Shown piece after piece: positions 2,288 through 23,273 of a stretch of 24,000 nt of DNA (within the stretch, counting starts at the first letter, position 1; each line of letters begins with the position of its first letter). The position numbers and the translations under genes are program-made. This stretch comes from an uncultured Flavonifractor sp. (GTDB taxonomy: Bacteria > Bacillota > Clostridia > Oscillospirales > Oscillospiraceae): contig NZ_CALWOJ010000014.1 of the NCBI RefSeq assembly GCF_944383115.1, positions 1-24,000 on the forward strand. The letters run 5' to 3'. The notes below the pieces were generated by a model. That model saw only the letters and a list, made by a program, of their open reading frames with translations. It did no database searches and was not told where the DNA came from.

Positions 2288-3574
2288 TTACGCAATGACC
2301 TTGCCGTCGTACAGCTCACCGGAGGAGATAATGATCTGATCTCCTGCCCGCAGGGCCTTTTTGGCCTGGGAGGCCACGGTGGAGGTCACCGGTTCCACCA
2401 GAATAAAGTTATCCTCTTCTGCCAACACGGTGACCTGCTTGAATTCAGCCCGCTGGCCCACCAGGGCGTACACCCCGGTGACCGAGATCTGGGACTGCTC
2501 CCCGGTCTCGCTGTCGGTGACGGTCTGCTGATCCACCCGCAGGGCCTCCTTGGGCAGGCGGATACCGGTAATGGTGTCAAAGACCAGATCCACCGTCTGC
2601 CGCCGCAGCAGGGTGGTGTCGGACAGGAACTTGTCGGTGGACAGCACCACCGCCACCTGCCCTCCCTCCGGGTCGCTCAGCCGCTCCACCTTCATGTCCA
2701 CCTCACCCGACCAGTCCCGGGAGAACCGGACGGTGACGGTGCGTCCCTCCACCAGACGAGCGGCGTCCCCCTCCGACAGGGTACAGGTGAAGTACCAGGT
2801 GGAGTTGGTAATAAGCTTGCCGATGGCGGTGGGATCCTCCGCCGGCTTTTGCCTGGCCAGTTCCTCCAGTTGAGCGGGGGTGAGGGTCTCCAGCATGGCC
2901 GGAGTGATGAGGCTCTCATACCCGTCCACCAGGCCGGAGAAGATCCCCGACTGGGCGGCGGTCACCCGGCTGGTATTCTGGGAGGTTTGGGCGGTAAGGG
3001 TGTTGATCTGGGCGTTTACCTCGTCCAGAGAGGCCTGGAGGGCGGCGGCGGAGTCCCCCTCTTCCTCCCCGAAGGTATAGCTGCGCTTGTATACCAGGCT
3101 CTTCAGTTCCATGGTCTGGCTCTCCAGACCGGTCAGGTCTCCGGAGGCCACGGCGCCCCGCAGGCTCGCAATGGCATCGGCCACCCGGCTGCTGAGCTGG
3201 GCGGAATCTCCGCTCCCCCCGGTCTGGGCCAGGGCGTACTCCAGCTGTTCCTGCTCCAGCAGCAGCTGCTGGAGGGTCTCCCGCTGGGTAAGGCCGGCGT
3301 CGCTCTGATAGAGCAGCGCCACCGTCTCGCCCAGGCTCACCTTTTCCCCCTCTTCGGGCAGGATCTCAACGGTACCCCCCTGGCCGGGGAGAACGGTCTC
3401 CGCCCGGACCAGAAAGCCGGTGGCTTCCAAACTATCGTCCACCGCATAGCTGTAAGCCGTTACCGTGGGATAGAGATCCCGCAGGCTGCTCAGGGCGGAG
3501 GCCGCAATGGTGATGACCACAGCGGCCAGCACCACCAGCATGACGATACGGGCGTTCAAAGAACCTTGCTTCAT
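2288..3574 (-). CDS. HlyD / membrane-fusion-protein-like protein with N-terminal TM anchor (orphan adaptor)
   Basis: N-terminal TM helix (IVMLVVLAAVVITIAASAL), a biotin-lipoyl-like hairpin (EGEKVSLGETVALL), a long coiled-coil segment and C-terminal beta-rich domains. RBS AAAGGAG upstream. No pump gene is adjacent. Confidence 0.6.
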   Translation of the reverse strand: MKQGSLNARIVMLVVLAAVVITIAASALSSLRDLYPTVTAYSYAVDDSLEATGFLVRAETVLPGQGGTVEILPEEGEKVSLGETVALLYQSDAGLTQRETLQQLLLEQEQLEYALAQTGGSGDSAQLSSRVADAIASLRGAVASGDLTGLESQTMELKSLVYKRSYTFGEEEGDSAAALQASLDEVNAQINTLTAQTSQNTSRVTAAQSGIFSGLVDGYESLITPAMLETLTPAQLEELARQKPAEDPTAIGKLITNSTWYFTCTLSEGDAARLVEGRTVTVRFSRDWSGEVDMKVERLSDPEGGQVAVVLSTDKFLSDTTLLRRQTVDLVFDTITGIRLPKEALRVDQQTVTDSETGEQSQISVTGVYALVGQRAEFKQVTVLAEEDNFILVEPVTSTVASQAKKALRAGDQIIISSGELYDGKVIA

Positions 3575-3923: not shown

Positions 3924-5882
3924 TTACGCTCTGCCGAACCGTTTTTCAATCTGTTGGCGGGTCAATTCTATGGCCACCGGCCTGCCGTGGGGACAGTATT
4001 TGACTTCCCCCGCCATAACAGCTTTAGCCACCTTGAGCAGCTCGGCCTCCCCGTTTTTCTGGCCCCCCTTGATGGCGGCTTTGCAGGCCATGGTGTGGAG
4101 CAGGGCGTCCCGGGCGGCGTCCGGGTCAGCGGTGCCGCAGGTGATGAGCCTGCCCGCCAGCTCCAGCAGTACGTCGGGAATGGCGGCGGCGTCCACATCG
4201 TCGGGGGCGGTGCGGACAATGATAGCCCCGCCGCCGAAGTCCTCCGCCTCAAAGCCGAAACGCTCCAGCAGGGGCAGCTGGGAGAGCAGCGCCGCCCCCT
4301 CCTCCGCCGGAGGGGTGAACACCACCGGGGTGAGCAGGGCCTGGACCATGGGGGTGTACCCCGCCGCCTTCAGCCGGTCAAAGTTCATCCGCTCATGGGC
4401 GGCGTGCTTGTCGATGAGCAGCACCTTGTCCCCCTGCTCCACGATGATGTAGGTGTTTAAGACCTCCCCCGCCATGCGCCAGGGTATTTCGTCGGCGCAA
4501 GCTGCGTATCCCTCGCTTTGCCGTTCACGGCAAAGCTCGCTCTCTGCGCTGCGCCTCCTCTCCCCACCGGACCCGCTGGCGCTGGGCTCCGGCGGGGGCC
4601 CCGCTTCCGGTTCGGGCTGGATGGGAGTCTGGGGTTCCACAGGGGGAATGGTGGGAACGGCTTCCTTTTCGACCACCGTAGGGGCGACCCTTGTGGTCGC
4701 CCGCACAGGTTGAGCGGTTTGGGCAGGCCGGGCGGCGAAGTCCCGCAGGGGCAAAGACGGCGCGGGCTTGACCTCCGCCTTGCGGGGCGGCTCCGCCGTC
4801 ATGGTGCGGAAGGTGGTCTGGTGGAGGGTCACCGTGTCCTGGGCTGCCTTGGGGGCCAGCCGGGGACTGTCCGCCAGGGCGGAGGGCCGGGACCGGTCGG
4901 CCTCCAGGGTGGATTTCACGGCGTAGTACACCGCGTCGAATACCTTCTTGTCGCTGCCGAACTTGACCTCCTGCTTGGTGGGGTGGACGTTTACATCCAC
5001 GGCGTTGAGCCTGGTCTGGAGGTGGAGGACGCAACCGGGGAACTTGCCCACCATCTTCTGGTTGGCGTAGGCCTCCTCCAGCGCGGCCATCATGGTGCGG
5101 CTTTTCACATACCGGCCGTTGACAAAGAAGTGCTGATAGCCCCGGCTGCCCCGGCAGCAGGTGGGCAGGGACACAAAGCCGGTGACGCTCATATCCTCCC
5201 CGGAGCCCTTCACCGGGGTAAAGCCCAGGGCCAGGTCACGGCCCAGCACGGCGTACAGCGCCGATTTCAGCTGGCCGTCGCCGGGGGTAAGCAGATCCTG
5301 TTTGCCGTCCCGGAGGAACTTAATGCTCACCTCCGGGTGGGACAGGGCCAGCCGCTGCACCATGGCGAAGCAGGCGGCGCTCTCGGCGGAGTCCTTCTTC
5401 ATAAACTTGAGCCGGGCGGGAGTGTTGTAGAACAGGTCTTTCACCACCATGGTGGTACCCTGGGGACAGCCCGCCTCCTGCTGATCCACCAACACGCCCC
5501 CCTCCAGGGAGAGGGCGGCGCCCAGGGGAGAATGGTTGGTGCGGGTGAGCAGTTCCACCCGGGACACGGCGGAGATGGCGGCCAGGGCCTCCCCCCGGAA
5601 GCCCAGGGTACCGATGGCCTCCAGGTCGTACTCGGTACGCAGCTTGCTGGTGGCGTGGCGGAGAAAGGCGGTGGGGGCCTCGTGGGCCTCGATGCCGCAG
5701 CCGTTGTCGGTGACCCGGATGAGGGCCATGCCCCCGTGCTGGATCTCCACCGTCAGCTTGTCGGCCCCGGCGTCGATGGCGTTCTCCATCAGTTCCTTTA
5801 CCACGGAGGCGGGCCGCTCGACGACTTCACCGGCGGCAATCAGGTCGGCCACATGGGAGTCAAGTTGTTGGATGTGAGGCAT
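3924..5882 (-). CDS. mutL: DNA mismatch repair protein MutL
   Basis: GHKL ATPase N-terminus (IAAGEVVERPASVVKELMENAIDAG, GFRGEAL), a Pro-rich linker, and a C-terminal dimerisation domain (LIDKHAAHERMNFDRL ... KYCPHGRP). Confidence 0.97.
   Translation of the reverse strand: MPHIQQLDSHVADLIAAGEVVERPASVVKELMENAIDAGADKLTVEIQHGGMALIRVTDNGCGIEAHEAPTAFLRHATSKLRTEYDLEAIGTLGFRGEALAAISAVSRVELLTRTNHSPLGAALSLEGGVLVDQQEAGCPQGTTMVVKDLFYNTPARLKFMKKDSAESAACFAMVQRLALSHPEVSIKFLRDGKQDLLTPGDGQLKSALYAVLGRDLALGFTPVKGSGEDMSVTGFVSLPTCCRGSRGYQHFFVNGRYVKSRTMMAALEEAYANQKMVGKFPGCVLHLQTRLNAVDVNVHPTKQEVKFGSDKKVFDAVYYAVKSTLEADRSRPSALADSPRLAPKAAQDTVTLHQTTFRTMTAEPPRKAEVKPAPSLPLRDFAARPAQTAQPVRATTRVAPTVVEKEAVPTIPPVEPQTPIQPEPEAGPPPEPSASGSGGERRRSAESELCRERQSEGYAACADEIPWRMAGEVLNTYIIVEQGDKVLLIDKHAAHERMNFDRLKAAGYTPMVQALLTPVVFTPPAEEGAALLSQLPLLERFGFEAEDFGGGAIIVRTAPDDVDAAAIPDVLLELAGRLITCGTADPDAARDALLHTMACKAAIKGGQKNGEAELLKVAKAVMAGEVKYCPHGRPVAIELTRQQIEKRFGRA
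4678..4702 (+). repeat. GTAG-headed hairpin (REP-like) inside the mutL linker coding region
   Basis: GTAG GGGCGACC CTTGT GGTCGCCC: perfect 8-bp stem with GTAG immediately 5'. It lies antisense to mutL and is read in-frame as RATTRVAPT. Confidence 0.35.
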
Positions 5883-5914: not shown

Positions 5915-5940
5915 GGGCGGTCCGGGAGGCCCGCCCCTAC
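5915..5940 (-). repeat. REP-like element E1 (GTAG + 9/4/9 hairpin)
   Basis: Minus strand reads GTAG GGGCGGGCC TCCC GGACCGCCC. 8 of 9 stem pairs form, with a G-A mismatch at stem position 7. Confidence 0.55.
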
Positions 5941-5950
5941 ATGGTTGGGA

Positions 5951-5976
5951 GTAGGGGGCGGCGTCCCCGACGCCCC
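5951..5976 (+). repeat. REP-like element E2 (GTAG + 9/4/9 hairpin), head-to-head with E1
   Basis: Plus strand reads GTAG GGGGCGGCG TCCC CGACGCCCC. 8 of 9 pairs form, with the same TCCC loop and the same position-7 G-A mismatch as E1. The two GTAG heads are 10 nt apart. Confidence 0.55.
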
Positions 5977-6710: not shown

Positions 6711-9308
6711 TTATACCAGCTGCTTCAATTCAAAGAGCAGGTTCATGGCCTCGATGGGGGTGAGGGTATTGAGATCCACCCCGCGCAGCCGCCGGGCCAC
6801 CTCGCCGCCCCCCATGTCCAGCAGGGACACCTGGTCGGGGGCGGGAGCCGCCGGGGCCTGGGGGGTCTGCACCCCGCCTGCCTCCAGCTCTTTCAGGATG
6901 TGGCGGGCCCGGGTGATGACCTTGTCAGGCACCCCGGCCAGCTTGGCCACTTCGATGCCATAGCTCTGGTCGGCCCCGCCGGGGACGATCTTCCGCAGGA
7001 AGAGAATGTCGTCCCCCTTCTTCTTGGCGGCGATGTTGTAGTTCTTCACCCCGGGGATGACCCCCTCCAGGGCGGTGATCTCATGGTAGTGGGTGGCAAA
7101 CAGGGTCTTGGCCCCCAGCTTTTTCTTGTCGGCGCAGTACTCCAGCACCGCGCGGGCAATGGACATACCGTCGTAGGTGGAGGTGCCCCGGCCGATCTCG
7201 TCCAGGATGAGCAGGCTCTTGCTGGTGGCGTTTTTTAAGAGTTCCGCCACCTCGGTCATCTCCACCATGAAGGTGGACTGACCGGCGCTCAGGTCGTCGC
7301 TGGCTCCGATGCGGGTGAATACCCGGTCCACGATGCCGATGCGGGCGGACTTGGCGGGGACGAAGGAACCCATTTGGGCCATCAGGACGATAAGGGCCAC
7401 CTGGCGCATGTAGGTGGACTTGCCCGCCATGTTGGGGCCGGTAATGATGGCCACCGTGTTGTCTTTTCCGTCCATCCGGGTGTCGTTGGGGACAAAGAGG
7501 GCATTTTTCAGCATCTTTTCCACCACCGGGTGGCGGCCCTCGGAAATTTCGATGGCGTCGGACAGATCCACCTCCGGGCGGCAGTAGCCGTTCTCGGCGG
7601 CCACGGCGGCAAAAGAGGCCAGCACATCCACCTGGGCCACGGCGGCGGCGGAGCGTTGGATCTCCCCCACCCGGGCGGCGGCCTGACAGCGCAGGTCACA
7701 GAAGAGCTGATACTCCAGGGCGGTGACCCGGTCCTGGGCGGACAGGATCTCATGCTCCAGGTCCTTCAGCTCCTGGGTGATGAACCGCTCGCAGTTGGCC
7801 AGGGTCTGCTTGCGGATGTAGTCCTCCGGCACCTGGTCGTAGTAGGATTTGGATACCTCGATGTAGTAGCCGAACACCTTGTTAAAGCCCACCTTCAGGC
7901 TCTTGATGCCGGTCTTTTCCTTCTCTCTGGCCTCCACGGCGGCCACCAGGTCCTTGCCGCCGGTGAGGATGCTCCGCAGCCGGTCCACCTCCGGGTCGTA
8001 GCCGTCCCGGATAAAGCCCCCCTCCCGGACCGAGAAGGGCGGATCGTCGCAGATGGCGGAGCAGATCAGCTCCCGCAGCTGGGGCACATCGTCCAGGCCG
8101 GCGGCCAGGGAGGTGAGCAGGGCGCCGGAGTAGGGGGAGAGCAGCTCCCGCAGCCGGGGCAGCTTGCCCAGGCCGGCGGCCAGGGCCGCCAGGTCCCGGC
8201 CACCCGCAGTGCCGTACACAATGCGGCCGATGAGCCGCTCCAGGTCGGTGATCTCCCGCAGGGTGTCCTTCAGCTCCTCCCGGCCGATGGGGTCGCCCAC
8301 CAGCTCCTCCACCGCACCCAGCCGACGGCTGATGGCGCCGGGAGAGAGCAGGGGCCGCTCCATCCAGGTGCGGATGAGCCGGTGGCCCATAGCGGTGCGG
8401 GTCTTGTCCAGCACCCACAGCAGGCTCCCCTTTTTCTCCTTGGAGCGGAGGGTCTCGGTCAGCTCCAGGTTGCGCCGGGCGGTGAGGTCCAGCTCCATGA
8501 ACTGGCCGGAGGTGAACCAGGTCAGGGTGGTGATGTGGGAGAGGTCGGTTTTCTGGGTCTCGTAGAGATAACTCAACAGGCCGCCCACCGCCTGGAGGGC
8601 GTGGTCGTCCCCCTCCGGCAGCTGATCCAGGCCGCCGGTGAACTGCTCCTCCACCAGGGCGCGGGCGGAATCGGGCCGAAAGCGGGCCTCCCCGCCGTTC
8701 TCGCACCGGCAGCCCAGCTGATTGGTGAGAAAGTCCAGCAGGGCGGCGTCGCTGTAGGCCCCGTCGGACAGCATGGCCTCCCGGGGGGAGAAGCGGCCCA
8801 GCTCGTTGCACAGGTGTTCCTTGGCGTCGGGGCCGGTAAAGGAGGTGACGGAGATCTCGCCGGTGGAGATGTCGCAGAAGCACAGCCCCGCCCCGGCGGA
8901 GTCGGCACAGACGGCGCAGATAAAGTTGTTGCGGCCCTCCTCCAGCATGGAGGAGGCGATGACGGTGCCGGGGGTGACGATACGGATGATGTCCCGGTCC
9001 ACCAGCCCCTTGGCGGTGGCGGGGTCCTCCATCTGCTCGCAGATGGCCACCTTGTAGCCCTTGGCGATGAGCCGGGCGATGTAGGCGTCGGCGCTGTGGT
9101 AGGGCACGCCGCACATGGGGGTGCGCTGATCCTCCGGCTTGCCCCGGTCCCGGGTGGTGAGGGTGAGATCCAGCTCCCTGGAGGCCAGCTTGGCGTCCTC
9201 CTGGAACATCTCGTAGAAGTCGCCCAGCCGGAAAAAGAGGATGCAGTCCGGGTGAAGTTCCTTCATTTTCAGATATTGGCGCATCATGGGAGTCAGTTCC
9301 GACGGCAT
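6711..9308 (-). CDS. mutS: DNA mismatch repair protein MutS
   Basis: MPSELTPMMRQYLKMKELHPD, FYEMF mismatch-binding motif, Walker A GPNMAGKSTYMRQ, and DEIGRGTSTYDG. RBS AAAGGAG (fwd 9317-9323) upstream. Confidence 0.98.
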   Translation of the reverse strand: MPSELTPMMRQYLKMKELHPDCILFFRLGDFYEMFQEDAKLASRELDLTLTTRDRGKPEDQRTPMCGVPYHSADAYIARLIAKGYKVAICEQMEDPATAKGLVDRDIIRIVTPGTVIASSMLEEGRNNFICAVCADSAGAGLCFCDISTGEISVTSFTGPDAKEHLCNELGRFSPREAMLSDGAYSDAALLDFLTNQLGCRCENGGEARFRPDSARALVEEQFTGGLDQLPEGDDHALQAVGGLLSYLYETQKTDLSHITTLTWFTSGQFMELDLTARRNLELTETLRSKEKKGSLLWVLDKTRTAMGHRLIRTWMERPLLSPGAISRRLGAVEELVGDPIGREELKDTLREITDLERLIGRIVYGTAGGRDLAALAAGLGKLPRLRELLSPYSGALLTSLAAGLDDVPQLRELICSAICDDPPFSVREGGFIRDGYDPEVDRLRSILTGGKDLVAAVEAREKEKTGIKSLKVGFNKVFGYYIEVSKSYYDQVPEDYIRKQTLANCERFITQELKDLEHEILSAQDRVTALEYQLFCDLRCQAAARVGEIQRSAAAVAQVDVLASFAAVAAENGYCRPEVDLSDAIEISEGRHPVVEKMLKNALFVPNDTRMDGKDNTVAIITGPNMAGKSTYMRQVALIVLMAQMGSFVPAKSARIGIVDRVFTRIGASDDLSAGQSTFMVEMTEVAELLKNATSKSLLILDEIGRGTSTYDGMSIARAVLEYCADKKKLGAKTLFATHYHEITALEGVIPGVKNYNIAAKKKGDDILFLRKIVPGGADQSYGIEVAKLAGVPDKVITRARHILKELEAGGVQTPQAPAAPAPDQVSLLDMGGGEVARRLRGVDLNTLTPIEAMNLLFELKQLV

Positions 9309-9790
9309 GGCGGGCGCTCCTTTTCTGTCTCAGTATAGTAGCGATCCAGTTCCCATTTTAATGGGTTCTGGTCAATATAGGTCCAAATGGTTTGAAAATC
9401 ATCGGTGTTGCGGACGATGTGGTCGTGATAGCCCCGCTGCCAGACCGGTGTGCCCCAGGCTTTGGTCACCAAAGTCTTAAAGGAACGCACCACGTTGGTC
9501 AGCGTAGGGGCCGATGCCTTCATCGGCCCGCTCTCCAGGGTTACCAGAAAATGAACGTGGTTGGGCATAATCACAAATTTAATGATGCCGGGGATAGAGG
9601 ACAGATGGCGCTCTGCCAGCTGTCCCAGAGGGGTGAGCCTGATCTGCGGGGCGATGTAGGCATCGCCCCCTACGATGGTGGACAGCGTATGGCGGCGGTC
9701 CTTGGTGCAGATAGTAATAAAATAGGTGCCGCCGGAGGTGTAATCCCAGGTTTTTAAGCGGAGATTCTTACGGACGGGATAATCGGGCAT
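9293..9790 (-). CDS. REP-associated tyrosine transposase-like protein (RAYT / IS200-type Y1 HUH enzyme, COG1943-like)
   Basis: WDYTSGGTYFITICTKDR beta-strand, HUH motif in IMPNHVHFLV, C-terminal WQRGYHDHIVRN with the candidate catalytic Tyr, and YIDQNPLKW. No tnpB partner and no IS ends were seen. RBS AAGGAGG upstream. Lower GC than its neighbours. Confidence 0.85.
   Translation of the reverse strand: MPDYPVRKNLRLKTWDYTSGGTYFITICTKDRRHTLSTIVGGDAYIAPQIRLTPLGQLAERHLSSIPGIIKFVIMPNHVHFLVTLESGPMKASAPTLTNVVRSFKTLVTKAWGTPVWQRGYHDHIVRNTDDFQTIWTYIDQNPLKWELDRYYTETEKERPPCRRN
9504..9529 (+). repeat. REP-like element H1 (inside the RAYT CDS)
   Basis: GTAG GGGCCGATG CCTT CATCGGCCC: perfect 9-bp stem, 4-nt loop. 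Confidence 0.65.
9648..9673 (-). repeat. REP-like element H2 (inside the RAYT CDS)
   Basis: Minus strand reads GTAG GGGGCGATG CCTA CATCGCCCC: perfect 9-bp stem. It differs from H1/H3 by a compensatory C-G to G-C swap. Confidence 0.65.
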
Positions 9791-9808
9791 TGGGAAACCC
9801 TCCTTTGC

Positions 9809-9834
9809 GGGCCGATGTGGGCATCGGCCCCTAC
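9809..9834 (-). repeat. REP-like element H3 (miaB-RAYT spacer)
   Basis: Minus strand reads GTAG GGGCCGATG CCCA CATCGGCCC: perfect 9-bp stem. Its GTAG overlaps the miaB TAG stop codon. Confidence 0.65.
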
Positions 9835-11234
9835 ACCTTCTCCCCCATCAAAGACCACTTGTTGGCCCCGGTGATCTTGACCTGCACAAACTGCCCGATG
9901 AGGGACTCCTCCCCGGTGAGGCGCACCAGCCGGTTGCCGGAGGTGCGGGCGGTGAGGCCCTTGTCATCCTGCCCGTCCACCAGGCAGCGCACCGTTTTCC
10001 CAATATAGGCCGCGTGCTTTTCCTCGGAAATCTGGTCCTGCCGCTCCACCAGCCGCTGGAACCAGGCCGCCTTCTCCTCCTTGGAGACGGGGTCTTCCAT
10101 CTTGGCGGCGGGGGTGCCCACACGGGGGGAATAGATAAAGGTAAAGAGGGCGTCAAACCGCACCTCGTCCAGCAGGGTCATGGTCTGCTCGAATTCCTCC
10201 GCCGTTTCCCCGGGGAAGCCCACGATCACGTCGGAGGTGATGACCACGTCGGGGATGGCCTCTCTCAGCCGGCGCACCTTGTCCAGGTAGCCCGAGCGGT
10301 CATACACCCGGTTCATGGCCTTCAGCACCCGGTCGCTGCCCGCCTGGAAGGGCAGGTGGAAGCAGGGGGCGATCTTGGGGGAGGACGCCATGGTGTCAAA
10401 GAGCTTCTGGGAGGCGTCCTTGGGGTGGCTGGTCATAAAGCGCAGCAGGAAGTCCCCGGGAATCTCGGAGGCCGCCTTCAAGAGGTCGGCAAAGTCACAG
10501 GGAGAGTCCAGATCCTTGCCGTAGGAGTTGACGTTCTGGCCCAGCAGGGTGATGTCCTTGTACCCCTCGGCCACCAGGCCCCGGATCTCATCCAGAATGA
10601 CCTCCGGCTGACGGGACCGCTCCCGGCCCCGGACGTAGGGCACGATGCAGTAGGTGCAGAAGTTGTTGCAGCCGTACATAATGGATACCCAGGCCTTCAC
10701 CCTGTCCTGGCGCACCACCGGGATGCCCTCGGCGATGGAGCCGGGCTCGTCGGCGATGTCGAAGATTCTCCCCCGGCGGGTCACCAGCCGGTACAGGAGT
10801 TCCGGGAACCGCCACAGGGCGTGGGGCCCGAACACCAGGTCCACCTGCCGGTAGCTCTCTTTGATCTTCTGGGCACGGTGGGGCTCCTGAGCCATGCAGC
10901 CGCACACGCAGATGAGCTGGTTGGGCTTGGCCCGCTTGGTGTGGACCAGGGCGCCCACGTTGCCCAGCACCCGCATTTCGGCGTGTTCCCGGATGGCGCA
11001 GGTGTTGATGAGGATCAGGTCGGCTTCCGCCTCGCTGTCGGTGAAGTCGTAGCCCATCTCCCGCAGGTAGCCCCGCAGTCGCTCGGAGTCGGCCTCGTTC
11101 TGCTGGCAGCCGTAGGTATCCACAAAGGCCAGCGGGGGCGTGGGGCGGGCGGCGTTGCGCTCATGGAGTTTCTGGCAGAAGTCCCGCTGACGCGCCACGT
11201 CGGCGGGGGAAATTTTGGTGGTCTGTCGGTTCAA
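9831..11234 (-). CDS. miaB: tRNA-2-methylthio-N6-dimethylallyladenosine synthase MiaB (radical SAM methylthiotransferase)
   Basis: UPF0004 domain (FVDTYGCQQNEADSE), radical SAM CNNFCTYCIVP, and a C-terminal TRAM domain. TTG start with GGAGGA upstream. Confidence 0.93.
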   Translation of the reverse strand: MNRQTTKISPADVARQRDFCQKLHERNAARPTPPLAFVDTYGCQQNEADSERLRGYLREMGYDFTDSEAEADLILINTCAIREHAEMRVLGNVGALVHTKRAKPNQLICVCGCMAQEPHRAQKIKESYRQVDLVFGPHALWRFPELLYRLVTRRGRIFDIADEPGSIAEGIPVVRQDRVKAWVSIMYGCNNFCTYCIVPYVRGRERSRQPEVILDEIRGLVAEGYKDITLLGQNVNSYGKDLDSPCDFADLLKAASEIPGDFLLRFMTSHPKDASQKLFDTMASSPKIAPCFHLPFQAGSDRVLKAMNRVYDRSGYLDKVRRLREAIPDVVITSDVIVGFPGETAEEFEQTMTLLDEVRFDALFTFIYSPRVGTPAAKMEDPVSKEEKAAWFQRLVERQDQISEEKHAAYIGKTVRCLVDGQDDKGLTARTSGNRLVRLTGEESLIGQFVQVKITGANKWSLMGEKV

Positions 11235-15971: not shown

Positions 15972-15998
15972 TCTAGGGGGGACTTTGTCCCCCCTAGA
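15972..15998 (+). other. Perfect 12-bp hairpin directly after the stop codon
   Basis: TCTAGGGGGGAC TTT GTCCCCCCTAGA. No U-tract follows. It is the first of four consecutive GC-rich hairpins in this spacer. Confidence 0.6.
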
Positions 15999-17998: not shown

Positions 17999-18033
17999 GG
18001 CCGGGCCGCGGTTCACGCGGCCCGGCCTTTCTT
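17999..18033 (+). terminator. Rho-independent terminator
   Basis: Perfect 12-bp stem GGCCGGGCCGCG / CGCGGCCCGGCC (17999-18010 / 18016-18027) with loop GTTCA, followed by TTTCTT. Confidence 0.75.
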
Positions 18034-22406: not shown

Positions 22407-23273
22407 TTGAAACACACGCTCAGCTACTATGTGAAAAGCTACGCCGTCATTACCCTGGGCTCCCTGCTCTACGCCCTGGCGTACAACATTTTCTACGCCC
22501 CCAACCTGGTGGCCATGGGGGGCCTTACCGGCCTGGGCCAGGTACTCAACGCCCTGATCCCCGTTCTGCCGGTGGGTACCACGGTGTTTGTGATGAACGT
22601 GCCCCTCTTCTTTTTGGGGTGGAAGTTCATTGGCGGGCACCTGCTGGTATCCTCCCTGTATGCCATGACCTTCAGCTCCTTTGCCATCGACGTGCTGGAC
22701 ATGATCTACCAGTTCCCGCCCATGGATACCATGCTGGCCGCCATCTTCGGCGGGGCCCTGCTGGGGGCGGGCATCGGCCTGGTATTCTCCAAGGGAGCCA
22801 CCACCGGCGGTACCGACCTCATCGCCCGGCTGCTCAAGCTGAAATTTGCCTGGCTGCCCATGGGCACCCTGGTCCTTATCCCCGACTTTATCGTCATCGT
22901 GCTGGCCGCCATCGCCTTTGGCAGGGTGGAGAGCGCCCTGTACGGCCTGGTGTCCCTGTTCATCACCTCCAAGGTGATGGATATGGTACTCTACGGCCTG
23001 GACAGCTCCAAGGTGGCCTATATCATCAGTGACTCCTGCAAGGCGATCACCGACGCGGTGATCGCCATGGACCGGGGGGCCACCATCCTCCACGGAGAGG
23101 GGGCCTACTCCGGGGACCAGAAAAAGGTGCTGATGGTGGCCTTCAAGCAGAAGGAGATCGTGCCTTTAAAGGAGAAAGTCAACGAGATTGATCCCCACGC
23201 CTTCCTCATCGTGTGCGACGCCCACGACGTGCTGGGGGAGGGCTTCCGCACCTACAGCAAAGACGACATCTAA
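22407..23273 (+). CDS. YitT-family membrane protein (DUF2179 C-terminal domain)
   Basis: TM-rich N-terminus (AYNIFYAPNLVAMGGLTGLGQV, GGTDLIA) and a soluble C-terminal domain (MVAFKQKEIVPLKEKVNEIDPHAFLIV). TTG start with GAGGAA upstream. Confidence 0.85.
   Translation: MKHTLSYYVKSYAVITLGSLLYALAYNIFYAPNLVAMGGLTGLGQVLNALIPVLPVGTTVFVMNVPLFFLGWKFIGGHLLVSSLYAMTFSSFAIDVLDMIYQFPPMDTMLAAIFGGALLGAGIGLVFSKGATTGGTDLIARLLKLKFAWLPMGTLVLIPDFIVIVLAAIAFGRVESALYGLVSLFITSKVMDMVLYGLDSSKVAYIISDSCKAITDAVIAMDRGATILHGEGAYSGDQKKVLMVAFKQKEIVPLKEKVNEIDPHAFLIVCDAHDVLGEGFRTYSKDDI

Follow-up and report, generated by a model that had tools for sequence, protein, structure and literature searches.

REP-like hairpins within and beside a RAYT gene at the miaB–mutS locus of an uncultured Flavonifractor: probable cognate sites in two surface loops of the enzyme

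A stretch of 24,000 nucleotides from an uncultured Flavonifractor species (assembly GCF_944383115.1, contig NZ_CALWOJ010000014.1, positions 1–24,000; we call it the window, and all coordinates are counted from its first letter) carries between miaB and mutS a gene for a REP-associated tyrosine transposase (RAYT). Repetitive extragenic palindromes (REPs) and domesticated transposases are widespread. Three nearly identical hairpins headed by GTAG belong to this gene, two of them inside its coding sequence and one directly upstream. We propose, with a probability of roughly 0.6, that these hairpins are the cognate REPs of a RAYT of subclass 2.4, whose flanking inverted pair came to lie in two permissive surface loops of the enzyme. 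The proposal is built on sequence comparisons and a predicted fold, which are laid out below together with the explanations that compete with it.

The three hairpins can be read directly from the sequence. Taken in the order of the RAYT coding strand, and each written with its GTAG first, H3 (the upstream REP; 9809–9834, minus strand) reads GTAG GGGCCGATG CCCA CATCGGCCC, H2 (the REP of site A; 9648–9673, minus strand) reads GTAG GGGGCGATG CCTA CATCGCCCC and H1 (the REP of site B; 9504–9529, plus strand) reads GTAG GGGCCGATG CCTT CATCGGCCC. Each thus consists of GTAG, a perfect 9-bp stem and a 4-nt loop, which on the GTAG strand is CCTT in H1, CCTA in H2 and CCCA in H3. The stem of H3 is identical to that of H1, while H2 differs from both at stem position 4, where C:G has become G:C and the pairing is preserved by compensation. 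H2 carries its GTAG on the RAYT coding strand and H1 is inverted relative to the gene, the coding strand reading there as an inverted REP (iREP), GGGCCGATG AAGG CATCGGCCC CTAC; the two are therefore oppositely oriented within the open reading frame (ORF), lie 118 nt apart and enclose coding sequence. H2 encodes VGGDAYIAP, in the frame GTA-GGG, and H1 encodes GPMKASAPT, its end ..CCC-CTA-C being read as A-P-T. H3 occupies the 40-nt spacer between miaB and the RAYT gene (9791–9830), and the last three letters of its GTAG serve as the stop codon of miaB (9831–9833). Much of this had been claimed in a sequence-only reading of the window, and it holds letter for letter: the positions and architecture of the hairpins, the compensated change at stem position 4 of H2, the placing of H1 and H2 with opposite orientations and different peptides inside the ORF at 9293–9790 (minus strand), and the way in which H3 fills the spacer and overlaps the miaB stop. 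The pattern GTAGGGGSCGATGN4CATCGSCCC has no match in 100 dinucleotide-preserving shuffles, and a shuffled window is expected to hold 0.12 perfect stems of 9 bp around a 4-nt loop, whatever their sequence. Folded as single-stranded DNA, H1, H2 and H3 reach about −12 kcal/mol each, with z between −3.7 and −4.3.

The gene that hosts these hairpins (9293–9790, minus strand, 165 residues) appears by Pfam, profile and fold to be a RAYT, that is, a TnpAREP-like HUH/Y1 gene. Its product matches Pfam Y1_Tnp above the cutoff (E 1.9e-6), and a profile of 31 homologues matches E. coli TnpAREP (PDB 4er8) with E 2.8e-10. The AlphaFold2 model (predicted local distance difference test, pLDDT, 81.5) has 4er8_A as its best match in the PDB (E 8.7e-7, TM-score 0.55). 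The HUH motif, PNHVH at residues 76–80, aligns with PEHMH of 4er8, and the catalytic tyrosine Y138 in YIDQNP aligns with Y115 (YIYINP); both the motif and the tyrosine are invariant in the homologue alignment. In the E. coli enzyme the GTAG is contacted by W94, Q95, E100, H101 and R104 (PMC6006769), and in our alignment these positions are taken by W117, Q118, D123, H124 and R127. From these matches the host gene is a relative of the HUH/Y1 RAYT (TnpAREP) enzymes and its product a predicted enzyme, which supports the identity, and with it the REP-like substrate, that had been suggested for the pair of gene and hairpins. In the model both hairpin-encoded segments are surface loops of lower confidence than the core. 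The site A peptide (H2, residues 41–48) is placed at the tip of a β-hairpin between β1 and helix A, ahead of the HUH strand, and the site B peptide (H1, residues 86–96) forms the loop leading from the HUH strand to the next helix and aligns with the β3:αC loop of 4er8. Two of the options offered at the outset hold: that REPs have invaded tolerant protein loops, and that in one subfamily of RAYTs the gene has sites of its own. The ribosome-binding site of the gene, AAGGAGG (9799–9805, minus strand), lies 8 nt 5' of the ATG and 3 nt 3' of H3.

How general is this arrangement? Homologues with available DNA numbered 86 (80 from metagenomes and 6 from genome loci, at 30–52% protein identity); the HUH motif was found in 83 of them, which together with the gene of the window gives 84 genes counted. 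Hairpins tagged with GTAG are present inside the coding sequence of 68 of the 84, and codon-shuffled versions of the same genes have none. Their orientation depends on which side of the HUH motif they are found: before it, 39 hairpins are GTAG-first on the sense strand and 6 are inverted, while after it 60 are inverted, i.e. followed by CTAC, and 18 are GTAG-first. A sense-oriented GTAG hairpin is found at site A in 39/84 genes, a hairpin followed by CTAC in the site B loop in 59/84, and both sites are occupied in 34/84. These counts allow for one internal mismatch; detection of perfect stems only gives 26 genes for site A and 37 for site B, an undercount (against 39 and 59) that arises because one REP class has a conserved G.A mismatch. 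Hairpins of this kind within the coding sequence are therefore, as far as the homologue sequences go, a family-wide feature, with two loop sites and a fixed polarity. What varies is the stem itself. The 67 strictly tagged hairpins in coding sequences have 30 distinct 5' arms (for example GGGCGAAC, GGGCGCAC, GGGACGCTG, GGCGGGATG, GGGCGGAT and GGACGCAT), all of them beginning with GG (67/67) and most with GGG (56/67). Within one gene the two sites, with B read as its reverse complement, show 0–4 differences in about 20 positions: they are identical in 8 of 21 pairs, with 1–4 differences in the remaining ones, and in a ninth pair (L121) the core and the loop are shared with one stem pair being different. 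Compensated differences between the stems of the two sites, as between H2 and H1, occur in six genes, those of the window and of loci L124, L134, L136, L153 and L186.

The hairpins of the window also have dispersed counterparts. We scanned one genome per GTDB species with the pattern GTAGGGGNCGATGN4CATCGNCCC, and the counts in this paragraph refer to the matches listed, which comprise at least 120 loci with 163 copies. Almost all of these loci are in Oscillospirales (Oscillospiraceae, Ruminococcaceae with isolates of R. flavefaciens included, Acutalibacteraceae, Faecousia, Gemmiger and Lawsonibacter), several metagenome-assembled genomes having several loci each, and a RAYT homologue is present at 6 of the 120. 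The free stem position 4 is a Watson-Crick pair in 159 of the 163 copies (C:G 63, A:T 50, G:C 24, T:A 22), and the loops are mostly CCCA, CCTA or CCCT. In 24 of 30 adjacent pairs the GTAG ends are outermost, with spacers of 19–20 or 47–64 nt that have a common core, the spacers of the doublets clustering at 52–58 nt; the two REPs of one doublet often differ at stem position 4, as H2 does from H1. Only 26% of the sites, but 72% of random positions, are in any frame that is free of stops for 150 nt to either side. By this distribution the motif of H1–H3 is a true REP, dispersed, mostly extragenic and arranged in inverted doublets in other Oscillospirales genomes. Among the doublets, those of GGGNCGATG with spacers of 52–54 nt (L026, L046, L057, L069, L074 and L108) have a shared 'gaattcgc' core, found in both orientations; since this core is shared across species, the GGGNCGATG doublet looks like one conserved mobile unit of about 105 nt, similar to REPINs (REP doublets forming hairpins) or to miniature inverted-repeat transposable elements, rather than like two independent REPs. 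The idea that REPIN doublets arose by deletion from the stretch between the two in-gene sites was discarded, since the 53-nt spacers have a core of their own (gaattcgc) and do not resemble RAYT coding sequence.

In a close relative with another allele, gene and hairpins have changed together. At locus L201 (5940–6582), compared with window positions 9293–9834, the flanking genes are 91–92% identical in DNA, the 5' end of the RAYT gene is 83% identical over 99 nt and its 3' end, from the WQ motif on, 91% identical over 150 nt. The centre of the gene (approximately codons 34–116, comprising the HUH strand and both loops) is unalignable, at 46% and with about 249 nt in the window against 333 nt in L201. 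Exactly where H3 is found in the window, L201 has a different 26-nt REP, GTAGGGGGCGGCGTCCCCGACGCCCA, between the retained flanks (TGTAG.. and ..GCAAAGGAGG), and this upstream REP of L201 matches the site-B REP of its own RAYT allele. The window also has a 17-nt deletion relative to L201, which brings the miaB stop codon into the GTAG. The gene centre and the upstream REP have thus been exchanged in one concerted swap between close relatives.

Which kind of RAYT is this? Quentin, Siguier, Chandler and Fichant (2018, BMC Genomics 19:475; PMC6006769) split the TnpAY1 family into subclasses, and the hallmark of their subclass 2.4 (RAYT Group 4 of Bertels) is that REPs are inserted in frame within the tnpAREP gene. 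The subclass has the motifs NH[IFV]H, WQ and YIxNNP (their Table 1), a variable insertion between β3 and αC, and REPs of 'long' and 'double-foot' GT[AG]G forms (PMC6006769). The protein of the window has NHVH, WQ and YIDQNP, the last with Q for the first N; the consensus of the family is YIDxNP. This signature alone does not fix the assignment, as subclasses 2.6 and 2.7 are similar. Its site-B loop (residues 86–96) corresponds to the β3–αC insertion and holds an in-frame REP, and its GTAG REPs have a GGG-CCC foot and stems of 8–9 bp, with double-foot forms in homologues L170, L172, L180, L189 and L193, of which L170, L180 and L193 are distant. Two further homologues, L173 and L178, carry the REP type that is listed for a Chloroflexus gene of subclass 2.4 (Table S1, PMC6006769). 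Taken at sequence level, the protein fits subclass 2.4 of TnpAY1. The paper names Cyanobacteria, Bacteroidetes and 'various phyla' for this subclass, and we found no example from Clostridia or Oscillospirales in its text (PMC6006769).

The E. coli REPtron (TnpAREP/YafM, 4ER8; Ton-Hoang et al., 2012, PMC3333891; Messing et al., 2012, PMC3479197) is a close point of comparison, having the same fold, HUH motif, catalytic tyrosine and GTAG-contact residues (W94, Q95 and R104 in E. coli), and GTAG-tagged palindromes in inverted pairs; the E. coli REP types y, z1 and z2 differ by compensated stem positions, as H2 differs from H1. However, E. coli TnpAREP belongs to subclass 2.2, with a DHLH motif, a C-terminal tail and long bulged REPs, in contrast to the short stems of the window type, which are perfect or have a single G.A mismatch. 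The E. coli REPs flank the gene and are never inside it, while those of the window are largely in the gene. A second comparison is with the REPIN-RAYT systems of Pseudomonas (Bertels and Rainey, 2011; Bertels, Gallie and Rainey, 2017, PMC5581495), in which likewise the RAYT is single-copy and vertically inherited, the inverted REP doublet is the repeated unit, and RAYT and REP co-evolve. Those systems differ in having RAYTs of Groups 2 and 3 and hundreds of extragenic REPINs, and in the window, unlike in Pseudomonas, the inverted pair encloses the HUH-coding core of the RAYT itself.

How might hairpins inside the gene be recognised and kept? In a classical REPtron an inverted REP pair flanks the gene, and in the window the pair is largely inside it, in a layout where GTAG-first H3 is upstream, GTAG-first H2 precedes the HUH strand and inverted H1 follows it. 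Both surface loops tolerate the nine residues encoded by each palindrome. Recognition of a GTAG-tagged hairpin on single-stranded DNA has been shown for the enzymes of E. coli, S. maltophilia and Marinomonas (PMC3333891, PMC8266576). Binding by E. coli TnpAREP needs both the GTAG and the REP structure, and the enzyme cleaves beside a neighbouring iREP and in the linker and carries out strand exchange (PMC3333891), while perfect-palindrome REPs are recognised partly via their loops (PMC8266576). By analogy, the enzyme of the window would recognise its GTAG-tagged hairpins on single-stranded DNA, and we infer that it binds and cleaves H1–H3. A REP in a permissive loop would then stay a preferred site, a landing pad at which it may be replaced by the current cognate type, either because the enzyme cuts REP/iREP pairs on single-stranded DNA and exchanges their strands, or through gene conversion from other copies. 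The position would persist, and the sequence would turn over along with the specificity of the enzyme. Presumably it is this turnover, and not a dedicated regulatory role, that keeps the hairpins intact.

Several points weigh against this proposal. The NCBIfam model REP_Tyr_transpos (NF047646) scores 73 bits (E 2.2e-20), below its 80-bit cutoff; it may be that the profile, with a length of 146, cannot accommodate the hairpin-encoded loops. No further copy of the exact H1–H3 type is present in the remaining 23.5 kb of the window, and the neighbouring REPs there are of other types. The breakpoints of the mosaic between window and L201 are off the hairpins, one some 20 nt ahead of site A and the other some 75 nt beyond site B, and ordinary homologous recombination is therefore the simplest mechanism for the swap of the central cassette. 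An enzyme-catalysed cassette exchange cut exactly at the hairpins was considered for the L201 event and, with the breakpoints at these distances, not adopted. The precise replacement of the upstream REP needs conversion from an in-gene copy or an enzyme-mediated exchange. Finally, the conserved position and polarity of the hairpins are also predicted by a dedicated cis-acting function, and sequence alone cannot separate the two.

If such a function existed, the in-gene and upstream REPs would be selected cis-acting sites by which the enzyme senses or restrains itself: it would bind the GTAG hairpins of its own gene on single-stranded DNA during replication or transcription, thereby blocking or attenuating expression, or keeping a master copy of the cognate REP joined to the region that determines the specificity of the protein. 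We consider this possible, albeit on the unlikely side. It would account for the position and polarity being kept across 30–52% protein identity while the stems turn over, for the hairpin-encoding loops being conserved about as well as the tyrosine motif, and for the upstream and site-B REPs changing together between alleles. The REP pair brackets the ribosome-binding site and the HUH-encoding segment, and, since E. coli TnpAREP binds a REP and cuts beside the iREP next to it (PMC3333891), a REP with an iREP after it on the coding strand makes a complete substrate. The strict polarity and the conservation lean towards a selected cis-acting site and so belong to the points that tell against our proposal. 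However, 16 of the 84 genes have no tagged hairpin in the coding sequence, some others having flanking copies only, and the arrangement is therefore dispensable. Extra and degenerate hairpin copies build up in the site-B loop (P0008, P0054 and L136), whose length among homologues ranges from 9 to more than 80 residues with extra hairpin-derived peptides, as would be expected for tolerated insertions. Quentin et al. report in-frame insertions generally between HuH and Y and read them as tolerated, modelling the loop as peripheral and away from the DNA-binding surface (PMC6006769). The dispensability in 16/84 genes and the degenerate site-B copies lean to tolerated insertion, as in the reading that we prefer.

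Both of these explanations have the hairpins acting as DNA, and there is a feature of the stems which bears on this directly. In one REP class the stem contains, always at the same position, one G.A mismatch (its example in the window is the doublet at 5915–5976, described below), and among the homologues the mismatch is always found on the GTAG strand, which is the sense strand in 8 cases at site A and the antisense strand in 13 cases at site B, and it never appears as T.C. It is the GTAG strand, not the transcript, that the asymmetry goes with, as recognition of a single DNA strand would predict; E. coli TnpAREP requires a mismatch in its REP (PMC3333891). It is improbable, therefore, that the hairpins act in the mRNA, as local stem-loops that stabilise the transcript or pause its synthesis, or as a duplex of H3 with H1 that is cut (e.g. 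by RNase III) and keeps the transposase low. This alternative draws on the minimum free energy fold of the RNA from 9480–9850 (minus strand), in which H3 pairs with H1 across about 290 nt (z = −6.7), on the position of RAYT within a co-oriented miaB-RAYT-mutS gene run, and on the argument of Di Nocera et al. (2013; PMC3733652) that many REPs act at the RNA level. Inside the loop closed by the predicted H3:H1 duplex (about 26 bp) lie the ribosome-binding site and the opening 290 nt of the coding sequence, and a duplex of such length could in principle be a substrate for RNase III. Yet, in addition to the strand of the mismatch, sites A and B of one gene often differ by compensated changes, which preserve each local hairpin and make any A:B duplex less stable, and among the matches listed in the genome scan none of the 4 copies, of 163, that are mismatched at the free stem position has a G.T wobble there. 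Polarity relative to GTAG should be irrelevant for an RNA hairpin and is nevertheless strongly kept. An Rfam scan of 9000–10200 by E-value gave one chance match to a snoRNA and no known RNA family.

Could the peptides, rather than the palindromes, be what is conserved? VGGDAHIAP and GPMWASAPT would then be functional motifs and the palindromes incidental, and both peptides are indeed well conserved among the nearest homologues, at 0.80 and 0.79 against 0.61 overall, close to the tyrosine motif. Among synonymous recodings of the encoded peptides, however, a median of only about 0.3% keep a perfect stem, yet all 42 of the 42 hairpins examined in this test are perfect. The 120 closest protein homologues give the same answer, with 95–97% of them having flanking residues that vary in pairs, exactly as Watson-Crick pairing requires. 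Site A (VG-x-D..I-y-P) has G/A 51 times, A/G 30 times and D/V 24 times, or 105/110, and site B (G-x-M..S-y-PT) has P/A 71 times, T/S 22 times, A/P 4 times and S/T 3 times, or 100/103. In distant homologues the peptides are wholly different (VGANCVRP, VGADIIRP, GRTQFAPT, GRMISAPT) and the palindrome and GTAG stay, the same 26-mer is found outside genes, and both peptides are in lower-confidence loops of the model. Conservation of surface loops at the level of the tyrosine motif points, at least in these alignments, to a constraint on the nucleic acid, and conservation at the protein level is therefore rejected: it is already contradicted by these tests and retains very little probability. The earlier claim that the nucleotide hairpin and not the peptide is conserved is supported by the recodings and the covarying pairs, and the possibility raised with it, that homologues keep the peptides with non-palindromic codons, was checked, with the result that they keep palindromic codons.

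It is equally hard to credit that the gene and its hairpins form an active insertion sequence of the IS200/IS605 type with the hairpins as its ends, for, although it shares with IS200, IS608 and ISDra2 the Y1/HUH fold of an enzyme acting on single-stranded DNA hairpins, and the hairpin tags resemble the 5' tetranucleotide guide sequences, those elements are mobile and multicopy, with left- and right-end hairpins on the same strand and outside the gene and with a Y-x-x-x-Q motif, whereas here the hairpins are inverted and in the gene, the tyrosine motif is Y-x-x-x-N-P (class 2), no tnpB is present in the 24-kb window, the 3' end of RAYT overlaps mutS, and the locus is single and fixed in many samples and related genera.

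The locus itself can be followed through many assemblies. Upstream, miaB (9831–11234, minus strand; Pfam UPF0004, Radical_SAM and TRAM) ends within the GTAG of H3. Downstream, the start of mutS (6711–9308, minus strand; Pfam MutS domains I–V) overlaps the 3'-terminal 16 nt of RAYT (9293–9308), an overlap that is the same in L201, and the C-terminal tail of the RAYT protein (..EKERPPCRRN) is encoded by the mutS start region. The exact RAYT protein is indexed in at least 57 metagenome assembly blocks, and all four of the places shown have the gene order miaB-RAYT-mutS-Rce1-like-mutL-hfq. The miaB-RAYT-mutS locus is also present in L201, L202, L136 and L186, with miaB proteins that are 67–92% identical. 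RAYT is thus a resident gene at a fixed locus between miaB and mutS and not a hopping insertion sequence. At the miaB-mutS locus of an Intestinimonas (L032) there is no RAYT; its 325-nt miaB-mutS spacer (3040–3364) holds other repeats, cttccccc..gggggaagg hairpins beside ggtgccccgcaggggcggatgagggg, and this repeat family is also found between REP pairs at two Faecousia loci (L104 and L117). In L136 (4460–5670), where the miaB protein is 92% identical, about 540 nt with two small ORFs are inserted between miaB and RAYT. The RAYT gene there has no obvious start codon, a site-B loop enlarged by degenerate tandem REP-like units and a stop codon ahead of mutS, and it may be a decaying allele.

Other REP types are found elsewhere in the window. 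The second type, GTAG GGGCGACC CTTGT GGTCGCCC (4678–4702, plus strand), is in frame within the linker of MutL (ORF 3924–5882, minus strand), where it encodes the peptide RATTRVAPT, and its stem occurs also at sites A and B of the RAYT alleles L136 and P0107. At L204 (15088–15277), where the RAYT protein is identical, the MutL linker has about 135 extra nt, in which two inverted REPs of a third type, GGGCGCGC / GGGCGCAC, lie in frame, and about 102 nt fewer further on, MutL being 660 residues long there and 652 in the window. Given these differences between the window and L204, the MutL linker gains and loses REPs between strains. A fourth type forms a head-to-head doublet with 10 nt between its copies (5915–5976), GTAGGGGCGGGCCTCCCGGACCGCCC on the minus strand (5915–5940) and GTAGGGGGCGGCGTCCCCGACGCCCC on the plus strand (5951–5976), in the spacer between the Rce1-like gene and mutL, each copy having a G.A mismatch at stem position 7. 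An identical doublet is found in the orthologous Rce1-like/mutL spacer of L201, and the same two types are present upstream of the L201 RAYT gene and in its site-B loop. As the REPs next to the RAYT gene of the window match its own allele and the dispersed REPs nearby match the L201 allele, the comparison suggests that the central RAYT cassette of the window is the newcomer. Four perfect hairpins with stems of 11–13 bp and no GTAG, at 160–192, 15972–15998, 17999–18027 and 23042–23066, are possibly terminators.

How much of this was known already? The sequence-only reading started from the premise that REPs only flank RAYT genes, which is out of date since Quentin et al. (2018; PMC6006769). REPs inside the RAYT gene were published in that year, and Di Nocera, De Gregorio and Rocco (2013; PMC3733652) had described GTAG REPs that are fully inside ORFs, notably in replication and repair genes, and cases in which the TAG of the GTAG supplies the stop codon of a flanking ORF. 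In view of these prior reports the central point of that first reading is a rediscovery. The MutL-linker REP of the window (4678–4702) and the miaB stop within H3 resemble the cases of Di Nocera et al., whose survey placed GTAG REPs mainly in Proteobacteria and some deeper-branching phyla (PMC3733652); in its text we found no example from Firmicutes or Clostridia and no REP inside a RAYT gene. The text of Quentin et al. and the readable part of its supplement contain no mention of a second site before HUH, of the REP/iREP polarity, of compensated differences between sites A and B or of a concerted swap of allele and REP, and our literature search brought up nothing on the RAYTs or REPINs of Oscillospiraceae or Ruminococcaceae. 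Apparently undescribed, therefore, are the Oscillospirales clade, site A, the REP/iREP polarity, the compensated differences between the two sites, the strand-specific mismatch, the concerted swap and the turnover of REPs in the MutL linker.

In principle the present analysis adds little to a published phenomenon, except that it is now known from a very large group of Clostridia of the gut and rumen. What it does provide is clean comparative evidence, in the form of nucleotide-constrained hairpins within coding sequences, a fixed REP/iREP polarity around the catalytic core, strand-specific mismatches and, in closely related genomes, joint replacement of the central region of the enzyme and the REP next to it. 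The RAYT alleles and the gain and loss of REPs in the MutL linker are concrete substrates for testing RAYT specificity and REP turnover. There is also a bolder possibility, which we put forward as tentative and rather doubtful from sequence evidence: the in-gene REP pair may be no passenger but a physical tie between the substrate and the recognising part of the enzyme, with the HUH core, site B and either the upstream REP or site A forming a REPIN-like cassette that is exchanged or converted as a unit, and with the enzyme acting on, or being limited by, its own gene. If this were true, specificity and REP type would switch together, as is seen between the window and L201, and the miaB-RAYT-mutS loci of gut Oscillospiraceae would represent a natural allele series for the co-evolution of RAYT and REP.

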